Below are positions 2,620-36,235 of a stretch of 43,691 nucleotides of DNA, in pieces. The notes below the pieces were generated by a model that saw only the letters and a list, made by a program, of their open reading frames with translations, did not search any database and was not told the DNA's origin. How positions within the stretch are numbered: position 1 is the first letter of the stretch; every line of letters begins with the position of its first letter. Source of the DNA: a virus (lineage: Duplodnaviria > Heunggongvirae > Uroviricota > Caudoviricetes); IMG/VR virus record IMGVR_UViG_2645727945_000025, positions 1-43,691 of that record; one strand, written 5' to 3'. Position numbers and translations under genes: made by a program.

Positions 2620-2843
2620 GCTTTAACCTCCTGCACATCAACCGCATTCACCGCGCTATTGTGTCTTACAGACTTAAGCGCCGCAATGCAGTCTGACTTG
2701 CAAATGCGATATGGGCTTTTAGGTTTATCTGGATTTATCTTTGCGGCCTGAAGTCGTCCACTTCGTATCCACTGCGTGATAGTGCCTTTGTCTACCTTCA
2801 GATACGATGCTGCCTCTTCACGAGTGAAGATTTCTTCTTCCAC
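2496..2843 (-). CDS. xis: Excisionase-like HTH protein (probable GTG start)
   Basis: Overlaps int 5' end as in lambdoid phages; homologous in sequence to the xis of prophage 2 (42238-42588). Confidence 0.65.
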   Translation of the reverse strand: MEEEIFTREEAASYLKVDKGTITQWIRSGRLQAAKINPDKPKSPYRICKSDCIAALKSVRHNSAVNAVDVQEVKACQSNYAVARGTVISSRQMDQELDALLKHRTKGKRKNFTIV

Positions 2844-2930
2844 TTGGAATCTCCATTTATTGAGTTGGTATTATTGCGGTAGGTCTGGATATCTTGAGAA
2901 ATGAACAGGCCTCATCGAGTGTGAGGCGGG

Positions 2931-3275
2931 TTAGTCCTTGCGTAGCTCGCTGATTCTTCTGTAAGTCTCTGGTGCTTTGTTCCCGTACGTCTTCATTTCA
3001 GACTTCAACAGAGCAACGAGTGAATCCCATTCGTTGAGGATGCCTTTGAATGCCGGAACGCGCTTTGCAACCTTGTCGAATGAATCTCTGATTTCTGGAA
3101 TCTGCTCAACAAGTGCAACGCATCGCCGGAAATCTGCTGCGTCATGTGGAGCGCCGAAGTGATGACCATAGATATTCTTTTTCAGTCCACATGCGATTGA
3201 GGCAAGAGTTGCGCTACTGATGCCGACATCGCCAGTCGATTGCCATTTCAAAACCTTAATAGCCAAATCTGACAT
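2931..3275 (-). CDS. Hypothetical protein (114 aa from internal ATG with GGAG RBS)
   Basis: Track ORF 2931-3302; likely start at Met10; preceded on its own strand by an intrinsic terminator. Confidence 0.5.
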   Translation of the reverse strand: MSDLAIKVLKWQSTGDVGISSATLASIACGLKKNIYGHHFGAPHDAADFRRCVALVEQIPEIRDSFDKVAKRVPAFKGILNEWDSLVALLKSEMKTYGNKAPETYRRISELRKD

Positions 3276-8635: not shown

Positions 8636-9240
8636 TAAGCAGCCGCTCCTTCTAATTCGTCTCGTCTGATGTTGTAAACGTCCTGCGCTTTGTGCTGCTC
8701 CGGTGTGCCTTCGAGCATCTTCCACGCTTTGGCGAACGCCTGTTTAAGCTCTTCCACGGTGTTTTTCTGCAATGCTGCGTCAGTGAATGCTTTTAGAACC
8801 TGTTCAGGTGTAGGTGATGGTTTTGATTGCTTTGCTGCTGCGTTCTGCTGATGTTTATGCTCGTCTGTATCTGCATCTTTCGCATCATCAATGCCGAATA
8901 AACCATTGAGGCAATACTTGCGTGCATAAGAGCTTGTAGCTCCCGTAACTTGTGCAGAATCCATTCCTTTCTTGCTTTCTTCCTCTCGTGCAAGAGCGGT
9001 TGCCGTATGACTGTTTTCGCCATCGGTAATAGTTGCCGTGGCTTTCACGTAATACCGATCACCAATCAACACAACTTCATCGCTGATTGATAAAAACAGG
9101 CCATTCAGTAACGGCTTAACGCCTTCAAGAATGTCTTCGCAGCTTCTGTATTTATATTTACCGAATGAGTTGTACTGATTCTTTGGCGCGTTCAGATTCT
9201 CCTGAATGGCTGCCAGCCTTGCATAAAATTCTTTGCTCAT
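8635..9240 (-). CDS. erf: ERF-family single-strand annealing recombinase
   Basis: Track ORF 8635-9270 (start at Met11); sequence recalled as close to P22 Erf (MSKEFYARLA...NQYNSFGKYKYRSCEDILEG). Confidence 0.7.
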   Translation of the reverse strand: MSKEFYARLAAIQENLNAPKNQYNSFGKYKYRSCEDILEGVKPLLNGLFLSISDEVVLIGDRYYVKATATITDGENSHTATALAREEESKKGMDSAQVTGATSSYARKYCLNGLFGIDDAKDADTDEHKHQQNAAAKQSKPSPTPEQVLKAFTDAALQKNTVEELKQAFAKAWKMLEGTPEQHKAQDVYNIRRDELEGAAA

Positions 9241-9250
9241 ATGATTGCTC

Positions 9251-9421
9251 TCAGAATGGACATGGCCCAAGGAAATAACGCTGATTTAATACTTCAGTCT
9301 TTGCCGCATTTAAAAATACGCGAACACCTTCACGATCTCCCTTCTGGCGATACATTAACGCCTGCTGCGTGTACATGCGTCTCTGTAACTTACTCTCCTT
9401 CACTGTGGTTGCAAGTGACAT
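9251..9421 (-). CDS. Small ORF (56 aa) in the kil/arf position
   Basis: ATG with strong AAGGAGATATTC RBS; below track size threshold. Confidence 0.35.
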   Translation of the reverse strand: MSLATTVKESKLQRRMYTQQALMYRQKGDREGVRVFLNAAKTEVLNQRYFLGPCPF

Positions 9422-9633
9422 GAATATCTCCTTCGTTACCGATTAATTCTTTCATCTGACGAATGAATTCTTCGTCTGACCAGTTATCTGTAAAGCTCAT
9501 TTCCTGCGATACCACGGAAGGTTGATAGCTGATTTCATCGCTTTATTTGCTTCAAGCCACATTTTGGAATCACCAATAAATCGGGCTATTACTGCTTTGT
9601 TTTGTGCAGCACGAAGCATCTGGTGATTGATGG

Positions 9634-9768
9634 CTATTTCATTGCGCATAACGCCTCCAGTTGTTTCTTTGCTGCTCTGATTAATTGTTTAACTCGGCGT
9701 GATAATTCAGATTCGTGCGGGTAGAAAGCGGACATGACGCCGCTACCCGCGAACTGAAAGTGCATCAT
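9634..9768 (-). CDS. cIII-like small protein (44 aa)
   Basis: Track ORF 9634-9873; AAGGAG RBS before internal Met36; position and sequence style match lambdoid cIII. Confidence 0.5.
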   Translation of the reverse strand: MMHFQFAGSGVMSAFYPHESELSRRVKQLIRAAKKQLEALCAMK

Positions 9769-9830
9769 GGGTAACTCCTTCTGTTTGATTGCATAACGAA
9801 AACGCCTCAATTGAAGCGTTATTGGTATGC

Positions 9831-9858
9831 ATATAAAAAGGCCCTCACACTGGAGGGC
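9831..9858 (-). terminator. Intrinsic terminator upstream of the cIII-like gene (approx.)
   Basis: Minus strand: GCCCTC-CAGTGT-GAGGGC hairpin followed by CTTTTTATAT. Confidence 0.4.
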
Positions 9859-9994
9859 AAAGAAGATTTCCAATAATCAGAACAAGTCGGCTCCTGTTTA
9901 GTTACGAGCGACATTGCTCCGTGTATTCACTCGTTGGAATGAATACACAGTGCAGTGTTTATTCTGTTGTTTATGCCAAAAATAAAGGCCACCA

Positions 9995-10195
9995 TCAGGC
10001 AGCCTTGTTATTCTGTTTACCAAGTTCTCTGGCAATCATTGCCGTAGTTCGTATTGCCCATTTATCGACATACTTCCCATCCTCCATTACAGGAAGCATT
10101 TCTTCAGGCTTAACCATGCATTCCGATTGCAGTTTGCATCCATTGCATCGCTTGAATTGTCCACACCATTGATTTTTATCAATAGTCGTAGTCAT
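9995..10195 (-). CDS. Hypothetical Cys-rich protein (66 aa)
   Basis: Track ORF; hairpin plus T-run on the minus strand follows its stop. Confidence 0.45.
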   Translation of the reverse strand: MTTTIDKNQWCGQFKRCNGCKLQSECMVKPEEMLPVMEDGKYVDKWAIRTTAMIARELGKQNNKAA

Positions 10196-10445
10196 AAGGA
10201 TAGTCCTGGTATTGCTCCATCACATCCTGCGGATGCTCTTCGAACTCTTCAAATTCTTCTTCCATATCTCACCTCAAATAAGTGGTTTGCTGCCTAATTT
10301 CATTTTCTGGCGACCAACACAAGCCACACCCATTTCACTGCGTGGCTTGCGGTAGTAAAGATTGTGCCTATCTTTTAACCACATCAGGCTCGGTGGTTCT
10401 CGTGTACCCCTACAGCGAGAAAAATAGTAAAATCCTCTCACCCCC

Positions 10446-10808
10446 TTATTTTGTCAGGGGGATATCTCCTTCAGTTCTGACCATTCGCCTTAATACTTTC
10501 CTTAAGTCGATGTAAAGTTGAAGGTCTCCATTTGCTGCGGCATCAGCCATTTTTTGCCTGACAAGCAGTAATGTTTCATACGGCTCAATAAGAATATCGT
10601 CATGAGTAATTAGGTGAAGCGTTGCCGCATCAACTATTCCTAGAGCTGCGCCAAGTATCAAAAATTCCCTGCTATTTTTGTCGCATGAGGAGATAAGCGT
10701 ATTTAGCGCATACCTAATATTCTTTATAGCTGTTGTTAATTCTGCAATTTCTTCTATGGCGTCTTCTCCAATGAGCTTTTCAAGCTCATATTTTTCTTCC
10801 TGACCCAT
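10446..10808 (-). CDS. Hypothetical AT-rich early gene (120 aa from Met24)
   Basis: Track ORF 10446-10877; GAGGT RBS before Met24; lower GC than neighbours. Confidence 0.45.
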   Translation of the reverse strand: MGQEEKYELEKLIGEDAIEEIAELTTAIKNIRYALNTLISSCDKNSREFLILGAALGIVDAATLHLITHDDILIEPYETLLLVRQKMADAAANGDLQLYIDLRKVLRRMVRTEGDIPLTK

Positions 10809-10810
10809 AA

Positions 10811-11083
10811 TTACCTCGCCGTCAGTTGTTTTGATTTCCGGTAGCCTGCCGCGTAAATGGCTACGTTTGGCAGGCAAATACTTCCACTGTATTCATCTGC
10901 CTTCTTGCAGCGAAGACTTCCGAGTGATGCTGCTTTATCTGCTCTGACGCAACCAGAGAGCTTTAGCGCAATCTTTCGCGCCAGTCGCTGTTCTTGCATT
11001 GCCTGTTCACGTTGAGCCTGTCTGCGTGCTCTGCGGTGATTTCTGGCGTTATCGTCAGCCAGATATGTAATGACTACTGTCAT
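10811..11083 (-). CDS. N: N-like transcription antiterminator (90 aa)
   Basis: Track ORF 10811-11155; start at Met25 with GGAGG RBS; arginine-rich N-terminus (NARNHRRARRQAQ) and C-terminus like P22 gp24; downstream of nutL. Confidence 0.7.
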   Translation of the reverse strand: MTVVITYLADDNARNHRRARRQAQREQAMQEQRLARKIALKLSGCVRADKAASLGSLRCKKADEYSGSICLPNVAIYAAGYRKSKQLTAR

Positions 11084-11123
11084 GTTGACCTCCGGGTAGG
11101 TGCACATCCTTGTGTGTCGATGA

Positions 11124-11243
11124 TTATTTGTTTTTGCGTTCCCACATCCAGTCATCTACTTCAGACCAGATAGTGAAACCGAAGCAGATGGCGAATGTGG
11201 TAACTAAACCACCGAGAATTGGGTTGGTCATGATGTCTAACAT
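11124..11243 (-). CDS. Possible 39-aa hydrophobic peptide between nutL and N
   Basis: ATG with GAGGAACAGAAA RBS; single predicted TM segment; below track threshold. Confidence 0.3.
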   Translation of the reverse strand: MLDIMTNPILGGLVTTFAICFGFTIWSEVDDWMWERKNK

Positions 11244-11414
11244 TTTCTGTTCCTCAGATGATTAGCTTTGGTGGTGTGGTAGGTGGGAGACCCATTTCGA
11301 CCCGCTTCGTCCGACTTCAATTCGGCAATAGTCCCGCAGGCCTCGCCGCTTTACGTGCGACATATTCCCGTCCATGAACCCTTCACCACACCCCAAAGCC
11401 AACTACTCTTTGGT

Positions 11415-11456
11415 TCCCGCATTTCGGCGGGACAATCCCATCAATGTTAAAGAGCC
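11415..11456 (-). promoter_or_regulatory. nutL (boxA-like plus boxB hairpin), approx.
   Basis: Minus-strand RNA contains GGCTCTTTA then UCCCGCCGAAAUGCGGGA, the same 18-nt boxB as nutR. Confidence 0.55.
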
Positions 11457-11503
11457 TGCCAATCTGTTCCGTTTGGCTACCAGCGTCCTGCTGATGGCTA
11501 AAG

Positions 11504-11588
11504 AATACTGTAGGTATTTTATTGTGTAAATACCCGAGGTATTTATTTTTGGTGAAATAATGATAAGCAAATGAATACAAAGGATATT
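11504..11588. promoter_or_regulatory. OL operators and PL promoter region (approx.)
   Basis: Three AATAC-N5-(G/A)TATT palindromes at about 11504-11518, 11529-11543, 11574-11588; minus-strand -35 TTTACA/-10 TATTCT overlap them. Confidence 0.5.
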
Positions 11589-11674
11589 TATTTTTTCGGT
11601 GTCTGCTTGTTCAGTGCTTTTTATGCGGGATATGTGAAGTGGATCCCGATAGCTATTGCTGCCGGGATTATGGG

Positions 11675-12043
11675 TTAGTCAGCGAAGGTTAAGACGAGAA
11701 TTACCTTAATGATGTCTGCTACAACAGACACGGCCATAGATAAACCAAAGACGATCCAAGCCATAGAGATGTCTTCACTACCATCGTATAGAGTTCCGTA
11801 ATCACTGGTGTAAGGCGTAAATGTCGCGCCTTGATACAATAGGTATAAGCTTGATCCATAGAGGATAAATGCAGATATCCCTTGTATTGCCATGATCACC
11901 AGAATCATGAAACGAGCTGATCTATGCGCCCAAGCCTGGCTTATTTTTTCTGATAGAGATTTCGCAATAAAAGCATGCGCTAAGCCGTAAATTGTTGAGA
12001 TTGCCAACATCCCCAAAAAGCTTGCTATAGCGGTTCCAACCAT
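11675..12043 (-). CDS. Predicted 3-TM membrane protein directly downstream of cI (rexB-like slot)
   Basis: Track ORF 11675-12064 abuts cI stop; ATG at 12043 with AAGGGG RBS or TTG at 12064; three hydrophobic helices. Confidence 0.55.
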   Translation of the reverse strand: MVGTAIASFLGMLAISTIYGLAHAFIAKSLSEKISQAWAHRSARFMILVIMAIQGISAFILYGSSLYLLYQGATFTPYTSDYGTLYDGSEDISMAWIVFGLSMAVSVVADIIKVILVLTFAD

Positions 12044-12060
12044 AATCGCCCCTTGCGTGA

Positions 12061-12777
12061 TCAAACCAGCCTTAGTTTTGTCTCAATTGCAACGCCTATA
12101 ATCTTGCAGTTTCCATTGATTGGCACGAGAGGCCATGCAGGATTAAGTCCCTTGAGGTATTTATTTCCGCCGTCGATTATCAGCTTCTTGAATGTTGCTT
12201 CGTTAGAGTCAGAAAGTTTTGCTATGACCAAGCTGCCGTTGATCGCCTCCCTTCCGGTATCGAAAAGAACGAATGTTCCCTCTGGAATGCTTAACCCAAC
12301 CGGTGCCGTCATTGAATCACCTTCCACTTTAAGCCAGAACGCATTACCTTGAATATGCGCGTCAGACTCAAGCCAAACATCTATGTCTTTAATGGTGTAT
12401 GGTTCGCATGCTTCACACCACGAGCCAGCCTGGATACTGCTTAACACCGGATACCTCTTTCCTGCTCTGTATTCCCCTGCATACCTTACGTTGGCATCGC
12501 TCTTAAGGCTTTCTGCCTGTTCTGCAACCTTGGCAGCAATTGACTGGCTAAAATCAGCAATTGAGACTTGCAACAATCGTGCAAAACCAGATGCAACCTC
12601 AACGTTTAGCGCGTTTCTGCCATTAAGATAATGCCCTACCGCTCCTTGGGTGATACCCAGTTCATCAGCGATTGAGTATTGGGTTATTCCCAATTCTTTC
12701 TTTTTTGACTCATACAAAGCCTTAAGACGCTTAGCGTCTTCGAGCTGTTCTGTCGTCAGTGATTTTTTATTTTCCAT
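12061..12777 (-). CDS. cI: CI repressor (HTH plus S24 LexA-like autocleavage domain), 238 aa
   Basis: Recalled similarity to lambda CI throughout (LTTEQLEDAKRLKALYE..., FWLKVEGDSMTAP..., C-terminal S24 domain). Confidence 0.9.
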   Translation of the reverse strand: MENKKSLTTEQLEDAKRLKALYESKKKELGITQYSIADELGITQGAVGHYLNGRNALNVEVASGFARLLQVSIADFSQSIAAKVAEQAESLKSDANVRYAGEYRAGKRYPVLSSIQAGSWCEACEPYTIKDIDVWLESDAHIQGNAFWLKVEGDSMTAPVGLSIPEGTFVLFDTGREAINGSLVIAKLSDSNEATFKKLIIDGGNKYLKGLNPAWPLVPINGNCKIIGVAIETKLRLV

Positions 12778-12877: not shown

Positions 12878-12883
12878 GTGCAT

Positions 12884-13078
12884 ATGATTCGAATGACACT
12901 TGCCGATTACGCCAAAATCCATGGACAGGCTAAAGCAGCCAGTGACTTTGGTGTAATCCAGTGCGCTATCAGCAAGGCCATTCTGGCAGGCCGTAACATC
13001 ATGGTTACGGTAAAGCCTGATGGCAGTGTGATTGGAGAGGAAGTTCGTCCTTTCCCAAGCAACAAGAAAAACAAATAG
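12884..13078 (+). CDS. cro: Cro repressor (64 aa)
   Basis: Recalled similarity to lambda Cro ([11 protein letters not shown]...FPSNKK); GGAGAG RBS. Confidence 0.85.
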
Positions 13079-13499: not shown

Positions 13500-14144
13500 A
13501 TGACATACGAAAATGACAAATTCCAGGTTCTGAAGAGCATGAAGGTGCCAGATGATTTTAAATCAAATGGCTTTGTTTATGTGCTTTCGAATGAGTGCAT
13601 GCCAGGAATTTATAAGATTGGGATGACTAAGCATTCACCAGAAGTTAGGGCTAAAGAAATTTCAGCCTCTACTGGCGTTCCTAAGCCATTTAAGGTGATA
13701 GCAGCCTTTCATTCAAATAATCCCGCATCAGATGAAAAACTCATTCATAAAGCCTTTGCAAAAGAGAGGCTTAGTGATAATCGAGAGTTTTTCAAGCTTG
13801 AAGATAATGATCTTTCTGAATCTCTAAATGAAATAAGGGCGCTGGTTGGCCCTGAAAGAAATGGCGAGACGGCAGAATACGCAATTTACGACTCATTCAT
13901 TTCTTTTCGCCATGAAAATGAGCTTGATCTTAATGAGGAGCTTATAGAGCAAGGTCTGGGTAGTGTAGTTGGTCATCTTCCTGCGGTGAAAAATTTCCTT
14001 ATTCGCGCCGGAATTGCTTACGCGAAGCAACTGATAAGCAAATATAACTCATCGATAGTTATTAATACAGATGGCAGTGTGGTGATGGTTAAGTCTCTTG
14101 AAGCCCAATGCTTTGATGCGGAGGTTGGAAATGAGCCTGGCTGA
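13500..14144 (+). CDS. T5orf172/GIY-YIG-superfamily domain protein (214 aa), moron between cII and O
   Basis: N-terminal motif GFVYVLSN...GIYKIGMT...R...F.V...E.LIHKAF...REFF; strong AGGAG RBS; AT-rich. Confidence 0.6.
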   Translation: MTYENDKFQVLKSMKVPDDFKSNGFVYVLSNECMPGIYKIGMTKHSPEVRAKEISASTGVPKPFKVIAAFHSNNPASDEKLIHKAFAKERLSDNREFFKLEDNDLSESLNEIRALVGPERNGETAEYAIYDSFISFRHENELDLNEELIEQGLGSVVGHLPAVKNFLIRAGIAYAKQLISKYNSSIVINTDGSVVMVKSLEAQCFDAEVGNEPG

Positions 14145-34232: not shown

Positions 34233-36235
34233 TGAAAGTAACTGCAAACGGTAAGACATTTACCTTTCCTGATGGTACGAGCACCGAAGATATTGGCACC
34301 GCCATTGATGAGTATTTTGCTGGACAGTCAGCGCCAACACAACAAGGTGTTCAGCAATCGCCAGCAGACAACTCACTTGCATCAGGATATGCACAGCTTG
34401 CCACTCAGCAGAAGGAAGGACTAGATCGCTCTGCTGAGCAAGGGGCTGTTTTAGGTGCTGCAATGCGCGATGCCGTTACCGGTGAAAGCCGAATGACACC
34501 AGAAATGGAGAGACTGCAAAATGTTGGGTCTGCTCCAGAGCTTAATAGCTTAAGCACTGATGCGCTGCGTGCTGGATTGGGGCAGCTATTTGGTTCCGAC
34601 GCTTCACAGGAGAAAATACTGCAAAGTATTGGCGGGAAAATCCGGAAGGATGAGAAGGGAAATTCCATAGTCACCCTTCCTTCAGGGGAATATGCACTTA
34701 ACAAGCCTGGTTTGTCACCGCAGGATATAACGTCATTCTTGGCAAATGCTCTTGCATTCACTCCAGCAGGTAGAGCTGCGTCTGTTGTAGGTGCAACACT
34801 AAAATCAGGCGCTACTGATTTAGCTTTACAGGGTGCCACTAAGATCGCTGGCGGTGAGAATGTTAATCCAGTTCAAACTGCAATTTCTGCTGGACTTGGT
34901 GGGGTACTGAAGGGTGTAGAAAACACCGCAAGCGCAGTGTCTCGCTCTGCTATGGGTAAGATTGCTCCTGAAAAACAAGCTCAGATTGACTTTGCCAAGC
35001 AGAACAACTTGCCACTGATGACAACAGATCTTGTGGAACCGGGAACAAATATTGGTAAGCAAGCACGAGCTATGGCTGAGCGAATCCCAATAGCCGGAAC
35101 AGGTGGGATAAGAAATGCACAGCAAAAGGCCAGGGAAGATTTAGTTAGAACATTTAGCGATAATGTTGGCGGAATATCTGACGCACAACTTTACCAATCA
35201 GCTACTCGTGGTCAGCAGCAATTTATTCAGGCTGCTGGCAAGAGGTACGACAGGATCATCAGTTTGATGGGGGATACTCCTGTTGACATCACTGGAACAG
35301 TGAAAGCAATTGATGAGCAGATTTCCAAGTTAACTCGCCCAGGAGTATCGCAAGACCGCTCAGCTGTTTCTGTCCTTCAACAGTTTAGAAATGACATCAC
35401 CAGCGGTCCAAATAACCTGCAATTAGCTAGAGAAAACCGCACAAACTTACGTAAGCGCTTTATGGCAGCACCTGACGAGGTCGATAGAGATACGCTGGAG
35501 AAAGCTGCGCAGTCTGTTTATAACGCATACACAACAGACATGAAAAAAGCGGTTGGCGCAAAACTAGGTGCGAAGGAAGCGCAAAACATGTCGCGTGTTG
35601 ATCGTTCTTGGGCAAAGTTCAACGACATGATGAGCAATACACGTGTCCAAAAAGCTATTCAGAGTGGTAAAACAACGCCAGAAGATGTCACTAAACTAGT
35701 ATTCAGCCAAAGCCCAGCGGAAAGGGCGCAACTTTATAGATTGCTTGATGATAGTGGGCGTCAAAATGCTAGAGCAGCACTTGTTCAGCGTGCAATGGAT
35801 AAGGCGACAAGCGATTCAGGAAAGCTTAGTGTTGAGAAGTTTATTAATGAAATGAAAAGGAATCGGAAGCAGGCTGAGACGTTCTTCAGAGGAGAGCATG
35901 GGAAACAGCTTGATGGGATAATGAAATATCTTGATTCCACTAGACAGGCAGCTACTGCTGCCGCAAGCCCACTGACAGGGCAAATGGTAGCTGGTCCAGC
36001 AGCGCTGATAACAGCTCTTGCGTCTGTTACAAATCCAATGTTTGCAAAAGTTGCGGCAGTTGGAGCTGGTATCGGTATGGCTGGCAGGGGCTATGAGTCA
36101 CGCGCGATGAGGAACGCATTACTAAAGTTAGCAAACACGCCAAAAGGAAGTACTGCTTATGATAGAGCGATCAGACGGGTATCTGAAACTCTTACACCTC
36201 TAATTCAGGCTTCAAGTGAGAAAGCCCAGCAGTAA
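34229..36235 (+). CDS. Ejection protein (P22 gp16-like, 668 aa)
   Basis: Synteny and size; last gene of the plus-strand virion operon. Confidence 0.8.
   Translation: MMKVTANGKTFTFPDGTSTEDIGTAIDEYFAGQSAPTQQGVQQSPADNSLASGYAQLATQQKEGLDRSAEQGAVLGAAMRDAVTGESRMTPEMERLQNVGSAPELNSLSTDALRAGLGQLFGSDASQEKILQSIGGKIRKDEKGNSIVTLPSGEYALNKPGLSPQDITSFLANALAFTPAGRAASVVGATLKSGATDLALQGATKIAGGENVNPVQTAISAGLGGVLKGVENTASAVSRSAMGKIAPEKQAQIDFAKQNNLPLMTTDLVEPGTNIGKQARAMAERIPIAGTGGIRNAQQKAREDLVRTFSDNVGGISDAQLYQSATRGQQQFIQAAGKRYDRIISLMGDTPVDITGTVKAIDEQISKLTRPGVSQDRSAVSVLQQFRNDITSGPNNLQLARENRTNLRKRFMAAPDEVDRDTLEKAAQSVYNAYTTDMKKAVGAKLGAKEAQNMSRVDRSWAKFNDMMSNTRVQKAIQSGKTTPEDVTKLVFSQSPAERAQLYRLLDDSGRQNARAALVQRAMDKATSDSGKLSVEKFINEMKRNRKQAETFFRGEHGKQLDGIMKYLDSTRQAATAAASPLTGQMVAGPAALITALASVTNPMFAKVAAVGAGIGMAGRGYESRAMRNALLKLANTPKGSTAYDRAIRRVSETLTPLIQASSEKAQQ

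Follow-up and report, generated by a model that had tools for sequence, protein, structure and literature searches.

The question raised by this locus is what a lambdoid phage carries between its N and cIII genes, and whether any of it is new. The window analyzed here, the whole 43,691-nucleotide stretch of the IMG/VR record IMGVR_UViG_2645727945_000025, had been described beforehand from its letters alone as holding, at this point, two AT-rich accessory ORFs and a structured leader. Both ORFs lie on the minus strand exactly where they had been placed, at 10446-10808 (120 aa from the ATG) and 9995-10195 (66 aa), and the proposed slot, the N-to-cIII accessory slot of the lambdoid pL operon with its anti-restriction and exclusion-type cargo, is borne out. 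The AT-richness is real but only moderate (G+C of 39.9% for the longer ORF and 41.8% for the shorter one, against 47.2% for the whole window). We consider it likely, taking the explanation as a whole and including the guess about the 120-aa product offered below, that the interval belongs to the leftward (pL) early operon of a mosaic lambdoid phage and forms its N-proximal part, on the minus strand. In the order of minus-strand transcription, an N gene of the HK620/H-19B type is followed by hkaQ, a 180-nt untranslated stretch, orf28, ral and an intrinsic terminator:

10811-11083, minus strand: N antiterminator of the HK620/H-19B type, with the 'type B' C-terminus CLPNVAIYAAGYRKSKQLTAR (Pfam N_peptide, E 1e-14; phrog_271)
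10813-10819, minus strand: Shine-Dalgarno sequence of hkaQ, GCGAGGT, embedded in the last N codons and the N stop codon
10446-10808, minus strand: hkaQ, encoding a 120-aa acidic (pI 4.8) helical protein (phrog_7374, annotated as function unknown; identity to HK620 HkaQ)
10179-10265, minus strand: orf28, a 28-aa very acidic peptide with a good Shine-Dalgarno sequence, GAGGTGA (phrog_16060, E 7e-19)
9995-10195, minus strand: ral, restriction-alleviation protein Ral (Pfam PF11058, phrog_1055, identity to lambda Ral)
9985-10006, minus strand: first canonical intrinsic terminator on the leftward transcript, overlapping the ral stop codon (consensus scan; -13.9 kcal/mol, z -3.3), at the same site as in lambda

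The distal end of this series is familiar. The 66-aa cysteine-rich product, which had been called unrecognizable, is Ral itself: it is identical to lambda Ral at 65 of 66 residues and matches both PF11058 (E 6.3e-48; 160.7 bits, the cut-off being 25; all 66 residues covered) and phrog_1055 (E 6.7e-49), and its gene occupies the expected place in the pL operon between N and cIII, with orf28 just ahead. By stimulating the host enzyme's methylase activity, Ral allows unmodified phage DNA to evade type I (EcoKI-type) restriction. Lambda ral is a conditionally essential gene, required when the host has an active type I system (PMC10695390). The acidic peptide ORF suspected upstream also exists, though with 28 rather than 27 codons, and it is lambda orf28 (28 of 28 residues identical), whose 3' end overlaps the start of ral by 17 nt. 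Neither orf28 nor HkaQ matched any family of the PADLOC-DB v2 defense-system models at E <= 1. A consensus scan of the minus strand from 11600 to 10007 for a tL1-equivalent intrinsic terminator, that is, a G+C-rich stem followed by a U-tract, found none, a result to be read with the fact that in lambda, too, the scan reports nothing terminator-like from N to the post-ral hairpin, the interval in which tL1 has been reported.

The untranslated stretch between hkaQ and orf28, judged by comparison with related phages, is a two-part recombination scar, made up of the promoter of a sieB slot and the leftover 3' fragment of a second N gene. Its elements, together with one that lies on the opposite strand within hkaQ, are:

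10274-10359, minus strand: what remains, at its 3' end, of a lambda/21-type ('type A') N gene, encoding NLYYRKPRSEMGVACVGRQKMKLGSKPLI*, with hairpin 1 inside it
10441-10461, minus strand: CCCCCU/AGGGGG hairpin across the hkaQ stop codon, also present in HK620
10403-10440, plus strand: orphaned sieB-slot promoter PsieB (-35 TGTACC at 10403-10408; -10 TAAAAT at 10428-10433; predicted start A10440)
10434-10446, no strand: junction at which the sieB-slot gene (hkaP in HK620) was lost, marked by the imperfect 11-13-nt repeat CCTCT(T)(C)ACCCC
10771-10797, plus strand: weak terminator-like hairpin and T-run inside hkaQ, on the strand opposite to it (consensus scan; -8.7 kcal/mol)

The N remnant lies in an ORF at 10274-10441; 84 bp of sequence, 10262-10345, fall inside intact N genes of phage 21, Sf101 and HK544, and 24 of its last 27 residues match the C-terminus of phage 21 N. 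PGAP annotates the same fragment in the E. coli prophage L004 as a truncated 'regulator'. This origin bears directly on the structured leader of the preliminary description, which is not a dedicated regulatory leader: it consists of the sieB promoter region (96.8% identical to that of P22) and the N remnant that carries hairpin 1. Of the two stable hairpins that had been proposed there, the first is indeed strong (10313-10354 on the minus-strand RNA; -21.3 kcal/mol, z -3.0, with 0 of 200 shuffles as stable), while the second resolves into two overlapping and weaker options, one at 10412-10444 (10 pairs, four of them G-U; -10.7 kcal/mol, z -2.8, 2 of 200 shuffles) and the other the hairpin across the hkaQ stop codon. 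The latter marks the 3' boundary of the hkaQ module and forms one side of the deletion junction. The stability of hairpin 1 and the untranslated state of the leader might suggest a functional RNA element of the pL transcript, such as a processing site, a stabilizer or a tL1 substitute controlling orf28-ral, and a single substitution unique to the window does make its stem perfect. Nevertheless, the sequence of the hairpin derives from type A N genes, of whose coding 3' end it was a part, its stem is mismatched and without covariation in all five relatives that span it, whether as intact genes or as a remnant (-14.6 to -16.8 kcal/mol), and lambda has lost most of it. Furthermore, no U-tract follows any leader hairpin, the covariance models of Rfam 15 applied to 9000-12500 gave no match at E <= 1, and the remainder of the leader is explained as opposite-strand promoter DNA, so that we regard such an RNA function as decidedly improbable. 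The 275-nt leader folds as a whole only modestly better than its shuffles (z -2.0, 6 of 200). Rho-dependent termination within it was also considered and rejected, as the RNA is G-rich rather than C-rich and therefore a poor Rho entry site.

The other half of the scar is recognizable by its promoter block, a 63-nt segment identical at 96.8% of positions to P22 and at 98.4% to lambda, within the counterpart of which the P22 record BK000583 annotates both the sieB promoter and the start of the sieB RNA. In the window the two hexamers are separated by a 19-nt spacer, and the -10 element reads TAAAAT where P22 has TAAACT. No gene of the SieB family (PF14163) is found among the plus-strand ORFs of 10196-10810, whereas the same Pfam model does match slot genes of relatives. 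The junction becomes apparent when the window is set against the two sequences flanking hkaP in HK620, and the same junction lacking hkaP is present in the E. coli prophages L004 and L005. The slot gene, which is hkaP in HK620 and sieB in lambda and P22, has been lost by a microhomology deletion between the short repeats. We infer from sequence identity that the orphan promoter is probably active in the lysogen and would give rise to a transcript antisense to hkaQ, entering the gene at its 3' end; it is a matter of speculation whether the terminator-like hairpin at 10771-10797 could be the end of this transcript.

What is left is the 120-aa ORF, which the preliminary description could not recognize. 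It turns out to be a published and named gene, hkaQ of phage HK620 (AAK28865; 97.5% identity between the proteins), with a full-length match to phrog_7374 (E 4.5e-78, residues 1-120 of 120); on the other hand, it does remain the case that no function emerges from sequence or fold searches. There were no matches to HkaQ in Pfam, NCBIfam or PADLOC, a sequence search of the PDB retrieved no solved relative, and a profile HMM run against 1.84 billion representatives recovered only members of the HkaQ family and repeat-protein noise. The literature searched holds no discussion of its function; one paper names hkaQ, using the hkaP/hkaQ intergenic region only as an insertion site. Yet hkaQ is a real and selected gene, because dN/dS is 0.14 at a dS of 1.7 in comparison with a 64%-identical homolog, which indicates purifying selection, and because its ribosome-binding site is conserved. 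The family is tiny and restricted to enterobacterial lambdoid prophages, with hkaQ present in about 72 of 5426 complete E. coli genomes and in 7 of 50,697 phage records. Its proteins share an invariant core, AI.NIR..L ... A..IVDA.TLHL..H.D.L.EP, which alignments also show in the window protein, and vary in their C-terminal tails, encoded beyond the stop-codon hairpin.

The most constant feature of hkaQ is its position directly after N in every lineage in which the upstream gene is on the contig, namely HK620 and the O26 prophages, E. coli L004 and L005, the Logan metagenomes L008-L010, Symbiopectobacterium purcellii, the P0032 lineage and Yersinia pekkanenii; this count leaves out L007, in which the gene caller skipped N, and P0033, whose contig is cut just upstream. 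The N gene of the window is near-identical to that of HK620, and only 2 nt separate its stop codon from the ATG of hkaQ, a spacing found also in Yersinia; the context GCGAGGT(A/G)A(A/T)(T/A)TATG is common to the E. coli, Logan-metagenome and Symbiopectobacterium homologs. This 2-nt gap, with the Shine-Dalgarno sequence lying inside the type B codons of N, implies coupled and proportional synthesis of N and HkaQ. It is conceivable from this arrangement that HkaQ assists the N antitermination module, specifically alongside N proteins with a type B C-terminus, acting on the activity or stability of N or on a component of host transcription (Rho, NusA or RNA polymerase, for instance), the more so as hkaQ and the C-terminal 25 or so residues of type B stay associated between Escherichia and Yersinia, in N proteins whose N-terminal parts are wholly different. 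However, the plaque-forming phage HK140 has the same type of N as the window and no hkaQ, the gene occurs in only those seven phage records, and the S. purcellii homolog follows, after a 37-nt gap, an N with a lambda/21-like C-terminus. Nor does the NCBI label 'antitermination N domain protein' lend support to this role, since neither the 120-aa nor the 148-aa form of HkaQ has an N-related Pfam match at E <= 1 in a Pfam-A scan that took in N-protein models (e.g. PF25694 N_peptide). Accordingly, we hold an N-accessory function to be improbable. The long database forms of HkaQ are upstream start calls, whose extra residues come from continuing the hkaQ frame into the 3' end of N, itself in another frame. 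Relative to N, hkaQ is read in the -1 frame, which stays open upstream over 28 codons or more, a length for which the chance expectation is about 1 in 4; a programmed -1 frameshift producing an N-HkaQ fusion was rejected, as no slippery heptamer of the X XXY YYZ type was seen in the overlap when the sequence was read by hand.

At its other end hkaQ directly faces, in five of six lineages, a convergent gene of the sieB slot, the 3' ends often overlapping, the partner being SieB in the P0032, P0033 and Yersinia lineages (8-nt overlap) and in S. purcellii, HkaP in HK620, and a GhoS-family gene in another lineage (18-nt overlap). By analogy with Esc/sas, which act against P22 SieB, HkaQ might be a self-immunity (escape) factor against the convergent exclusion gene: the prophage would express that gene from PsieB, and an incoming or induced phage would make HkaQ first, from pL, and so evade its own system. 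Self-protection against SieB has its precedent in P22 (PMC12197685, PMC7067206). Set against this, the slot partner belongs to three unrelated protein families or is absent altogether (as in the window, L004 and L005), members of the HkaP family are widespread among phages of Pseudomonas and Klebsiella in which HkaQ is absent, and both lambda and P22 possess sieB without any HkaQ. As the sieB slot is generic to lambdoid phages, the adjacency may reflect position only, and we think an escape function of this kind unlikely. A two-gene toxin-antitoxin or defense pair of HkaQ and HkaP was rejected for related reasons: HkaP (phrog_1244) is common in those same phages without HkaQ, while HkaQ co-occurs with SieB, with the GhoS-like gene, or stands alone.

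AlphaFold2 predicts for HkaQ an all-helical model of four helices with moderate confidence (pLDDT 73-74, pTM 0.45-0.49), in which the most conserved motif of the family lies in a low-confidence loop. We also considered a small membrane protein anchored by residues 49-67, for example an early injection blocker or a modulator of FtsH/HflKC, for which the Kyte-Doolittle 19-residue mean of 2.03 for FLILGAALGIVDAATLHLI (1.99 in the 64%-identical homolog) and a GxxxG-like motif within it could be cited. But the segment has an invariant Asp at its center and also contains a His and a Thr, short-form homologs score only 1.55 on the same scale, a hand estimate on the Hessa biological scale gives about +2.8 kcal/mol, which would make insertion unfavorable, and the model makes this segment the core helix of the bundle and is most confident there (pLDDT 84-89); a membrane role is hence very improbable. 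A metal-binding or HD-type enzyme, suggested by the motif HLITHDD, was rejected for want of Pfam support and on the spacing of the two histidines in this motif, which are one helical turn apart, unlike those of HD domains.

Our best guess, which we put forward as tentative, is that HkaQ is an immediate-early protein that binds and neutralizes a defense or exclusion protein of the host or of a resident prophage. Its synthesis, alongside that of N, would begin as soon as infection or induction sets in, and the invariant ATLHLIxHDDxLxEP segment, disordered in the model, may provide the binding surface. Ral, Gam and Abc2, which are encoded further down the same operon, bind and neutralize host defense proteins. 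The patchy, accessory distribution of hkaQ, its low G+C content and the acidity of its product (pI 4.8) point in this direction, as do neighbors that are counter-defense genes, ral here and abc2 in HK620 and HK629. The immediate-early part of the argument is made from the consensus scan, which detects no canonical intrinsic terminator from pL as far as the end of ral, although a stop of a non-canonical or Rho-dependent kind may lie within that span. A larger proposal, which we consider rather doubtful when all its parts are taken jointly, is that HkaQ founds a new family of immediate-early proteins for counter-defense or anti-exclusion, made along with N ahead of any need for antitermination and acting by means of ATLHLIxHDDxLxEP, and that an antisense RNA of about 350 nt from the orphan sieB promoter would also silence hkaQ and N in the lysogen.

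Most of the interval is thus already known, consisting of textbook lambda genes and recombination scars, and opens no new question. As a record of reshuffling it preserves short-repeat deletions at both junctions and a promoter left facing a neighboring gene, and the duplicated 3' end of N is still present, in further-deleted form, in lambda itself. HkaQ is conserved, selected and uncharacterized, and holds the only accessory position in lambdoid phages that is expressed as early as N; it is therefore a cheap candidate for anti-defense or anti-exclusion screens.

Among known systems the closest counterpart of the proximal part is HK620, together with HK629, HK630 and the O26 Stx1 prophages, whose HkaQ proteins are 97.5-98.3% identical to that of the window. 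In HK620, as here, the same N gene ends 2 nt ahead of hkaQ and a hairpin spans the hkaQ stop codon; HK620 differs in having a convergent hkaP between hkaQ and the sieB-type promoter and no ral, whereas here hkaP is deleted and a lambda-type orf28-ral follows. The orphan promoter retains the -35 element, the 19-nt spacing and the orientation, opposite to pL, of PsieB of P22 and lambda. Unlike in those phages, no sieB, esc or other ORF lies downstream of it, so that it reads straight into the antisense strand of hkaQ, and the second ACCCCTACAG repeat, at the transcription start, has been truncated by the deletion. The distal part is that of lambda in the overlap of orf28 with the start of ral, in the pL position between N and cIII and in the terminator across the ral stop codon, with no substantial difference other than that ral here lies downstream of hkaQ and the scar and in lambda downstream of sieB. 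Finally, orf28 directly adjoins an N 3' end, which is exactly the arrangement of phage 21, with its order N-orf28-ral, and of Sf101 and HK544, but only the last 28 or so codons of that N are left here as a non-functional fragment, and the working N is another gene, of the HK620 type, further upstream.

The window comes from an Escherichia phage or prophage that is lambdoid and mosaic; the best phage-collection record covers 41% of its first 25 kb, and no close full-length relative was found in that collection. Its early-left operon lies on the minus strand and its immunity region matches that of HK620. The relevant features are:

9634-9768, cIII (Pfam cIII, E 1.5e-29)
9995-10195, minus strand, ral, 66-aa ORF
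10179-10265, minus strand, orf28, acidic peptide ORF
10446-10808, minus strand, hkaQ, 120-aa ORF
10811-11083, N (Pfam N_peptide, E 1e-14)
12061-12777, cI, 717 bp, HK620-like immunity region
12878-13078, cro, divergent from cI, HK620-like immunity region
plus strand, orphaned sieB-type promoter placed by alignment to P22: -35 TGTACC 10403-10408, -10 TAAAAT 10428-10433, predicted start A10440

As N and cIII flank them, the ORFs and the leader (the untranslated scar between hkaQ and orf28) occupy the N-to-cIII interval, where the preliminary description had placed them. The 120-aa and 66-aa ORFs were found at the coordinates it gave, and its remark on AT-richness agrees with a GC content of 39.9% and 41.8%, respectively, vs 47.2% for the window. 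The acidic peptide ORF is likewise present, with 28 codons rather than the 27 residues suggested. The resulting gene order is N-hkaQ-scar-orf28-ral-terminator, with a close N-hkaQ junction.

There are other ORFs nearby. In the rex slot, flanked by cI and pL, one of them (11675-12064, minus strand) encodes a multi-pass hydrophobic product of 129 aa, or 122 aa if counted from the likely start; it matches phrog_6534 (E 2e-78, function unannotated), is the counterpart of HK620 hkaS and is a candidate exclusion gene expressed by the prophage. Between pL/nutL and N lies a 39-aa hydrophobic ORF (MLDIMTNPILGGLVTTFAICFGFTIWSEVDDWMWERKNK; 11124-11243, minus strand; phrog_7482, E 8e-25, function unannotated), likened by position to HK140_048 of HK140 and lacking a counterpart in the HK620 annotation. 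The space separating cII from the replication genes contains an inserted gene for a 214-aa T5orf172/MUG113-domain protein (13500-14144, plus strand; Pfam E 2e-15 and 4e-16).

The earlier statement that neither ORF product is recognizable fails for the 66-aa ORF, which is Ral: it shows a full-length Pfam Ral match (E 6.3e-48), matches phrog_1055 and is identical to lambda Ral at 65/66 positions. Similarly, the 28-aa product is identical to that of lambda orf28 (28/28) and matches phrog_16060. The window from ~9840 to ~10430 aligns with lambda 33.9-34.45 kb, one indel excepted, and a canonical terminator (9985-10006) overlaps the ral stop codon as in lambda. Ral relieves type I restriction through enhanced modification. 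A CRISPRi study confirmed that lambda ral becomes important when the host has an active type I system (PMC10695390).

By contrast with its neighbors, HkaQ has no match in Pfam, NCBIfam or PADLOC; it matches phrog_7374 (function unannotated) end to end, and HK620 hkaQ is a named ORF annotated 'unknown'. In tblastn searches it was recovered in only 7 phage records (HK620, HK629, HK630, one Stx1a phage; 97.5-98.3% identity), it is present in ~72 of 5426 complete E. coli genomes, and the exact protein of the window is WP_052923882.1. Comparison with a 64%-identical homologue yields dN/dS 0.14 at dS 1.7; the ATG lies 2 nt past the N stop codon, and the Shine-Dalgarno element GCGAGGT is embedded in the final N codons and kept in distant homologues. 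On this sequence evidence hkaQ is a genuine gene. NCBI names it 'antitermination N domain protein' (e.g. WP_447312262.1, in an E. coli prophage, L004:2077-2439). This label provides no lead, because domain searches detected no N-related domain in HkaQ and the longer forms in the databases result from start calls placed upstream, which read through the N 3' end in another frame; the label probably stems from such gene models, which overlap the N 3' end out of frame.

The HkaQ family is tiny, with 5 clusters among 5.8 billion proteins. When 1.84 billion representatives were searched exhaustively with a profile, one true relative (P0008) emerged along with repeat-protein noise, and a second profile search with a genome scan added short forms of ~92 aa (P0032, P0033, Yersinia pekkanenii), which lack the long form's final two helices. 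The invariant core reads AI.NIR..L followed by A..IVDA.TLHL..H.D.L.EP. Wherever the contig includes the upstream gene, hkaQ is the first gene after N in lambdoid prophages. N proteins show two types of C-terminus, type A ending in ...WYSKP..G.TC.GRQKIK...PLI (lambda, phage 21) and type B in ...CLPNVAIYAAGYRKSKQLTAR (HK620, H-19B-like). The combination of type B N, 2-nt junction and hkaQ was found from Escherichia to Yersinia, and in Symbiopectobacterium purcellii the homologue lies 37 nt after a type A-like N. This constant position next to N could suggest that HkaQ modulates N or host transcription, but we consider this unlikely; HK140 has a type B N without hkaQ, and therefore type B N does not require HkaQ.

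Downstream of hkaQ, the 'sieB slot' is usually filled by a convergent gene: SieB in S. purcellii and in some relatives with an 8-nt overlap, a GhoS-family gene (29.3 bits vs a cut-off of 21), or HkaP in HK620. An improbable reading of this arrangement is that HkaQ is a self-immunity factor for the slot gene; HkaP belongs to a broad family (phrog_1244) found in Pseudomonas and Klebsiella phages without HkaQ. In the metagenomic prophage carrying the 64%-identical homologue (L008:1713-1997, minus strand; 2114-2251 and 2652-2948, plus strand), an ORF for a 45-aa hydrophobic peptide comes after the GhoS-family slot gene; for a 98-aa gene, pre-computed tables list a second N-type antiterminator model, PF26859, which a Pfam scan at E <= 0.01 did not reproduce.

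The leader itself is a composite recombination scar. An 84-bp segment (10262-10345) falls within N genes that are intact in phage 21, Sf101, HK544 and many more, and translation of the minus-strand frame that ends at 10274 gives ...NLYYRKPRSEMGVACVGRQKMKLGSKPLI*, its final 27 residues matching the phage 21 N C-terminus at 24/27 positions; in another E. coli prophage, PGAP labels this fragment a truncated 'regulator'. Hence, the ancestral order was that of phage 21, N(type A)-orf28-ral, and a block comprising a type B N end, hkaQ and a sieB-slot cassette ended up upstream of the last ~28 codons of the type A N. Lambda has the same remnant (...NLYYRNP; L003:1374-1394, i.e. lambda 34373-34393) between orf28 and the sieB promoter, shorter than that of the window (10274-10359) by a deletion of ~51-61 bp between GCAAGCCAC and GCAAACCAC repeats. 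Hence, the sieB cassette seems to sit within a duplicated N 3' end.

Of the two hairpins of the proposed structured leader, one is strong and the second dissolves into two weaker, overlapping options. Hairpin 1 (10313-10354, minus-strand RNA) folds at -21.3 kcal/mol (z -3.0; 0/200 shuffles as stable). The second could be 10412-10444 (-10.7 kcal/mol, four G-U pairs) or a CCCCCU/AGGGGG stem at 10441-10461 spanning the stop codon of the 120-aa ORF; the whole leader, at z -2.0, is only marginal against shuffles. There was no Rfam match at E <= 1, sequence reading and a terminator consensus scan found no U-tract after any leader hairpin, and the RNA is G-rich, not C-rich. Hairpin 1 is built from the remnant codons K-P-R-S-E-M-G-V-A-C. 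All five relatives spanning the whole stem (the intact N genes of phage 21, PA28 and PDP110P1, an O26 prophage remnant, and Sf101) have GTGACTT as the 3' arm, and the four of them that were folded give mismatched stems (-14.6 to -16.8 kcal/mol); among the stem-spanning sequences compared, GTGGCTT occurs only in the window (63-nt segment, -23.1 kcal/mol). One substitution and no covariation do not amount to evidence for a selected RNA structure, and hairpin 1 is a by-product of the N remnant.

The rest of the scar reflects loss of the slot gene. In HK620 hkaP separates hkaQ from a block that lambda shares; the window lacks hkaP, and the junction falls in an imperfect 11-13-nt repeat (CCTCTTACCCC left of hkaP, CCTCTTCACCCCC right of it, CCTCTCACCCCC in the window). 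Two other E. coli prophages have this junction too. The shared block (10360-10425) shows 96.8% identity to P22 and 98.4% to lambda; the curated record of P22 labels it as the sieB promoter and places the sieB RNA start 7 nt past the -10 hexamer. The 19-nt spacer is as in P22. With hkaP gone, this promoter now faces the hkaQ 3' end. No ORF of more than 6 codons was read downstream, and at 10771-10797 the plus strand has a terminator-like hairpin, weak and with a T-run; we infer that the promoter would make an antisense RNA of ~350 nt to hkaQ in lysogens. A 28-nt core 100% conserved even in S. purcellii, with a nearby 35-nt stretch 94% conserved in Logan-metagenome prophages, fits a functional promoter. 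A direct repeat, ACCCCTACAG, flanks the sieB promoter in lambda, P22, HK620 and S. purcellii, one copy overlapping the -35 and the other at the RNA start (window 10405-10414 and 10440-10446, the second copy truncated by the deletion; L003:1438-1480; L018:1346-1390; L011:5870-5935), and could be a putative regulator binding site.

By analogy with established lambda biology, pL would fire upon infection or induction, with N and hkaQ translated first. The consensus scan detected no canonical terminator up to the ral 3' end, and orf28-ral expression may thus not depend on antitermination either, in line with the phage 21 layout, though the same scan finds nothing terminator-like between lambda N and the post-ral hairpin, where tL1 is reported. 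Ral would then protect unmodified DNA, progeny or incoming, against type I restriction. As for HkaQ, we tentatively predict a small soluble protein that binds and neutralizes a defence or exclusion factor of the host or of a prophage. The grounds are that hkaQ would be expressed as early as possible, that it is a patchily distributed accessory gene of low GC, that the protein is acidic and helical with a conserved motif probably ordered by a partner, and that its neighbors act in counter-defence. A membrane protein is very unlikely; the remaining probability falls to some other role or to no current function.

The contiguous arrangement of type B N, hkaQ, no slot gene, N remnant and orf28-ral was not found in the phage collection or among the complete E. 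coli genomes. Indels at recombination junctions are all that sets this combination apart from known prophages, and each of its elements has a counterpart of at least 96% identity in the published annotated genomes of lambda, phage 21, HK620 and P22.
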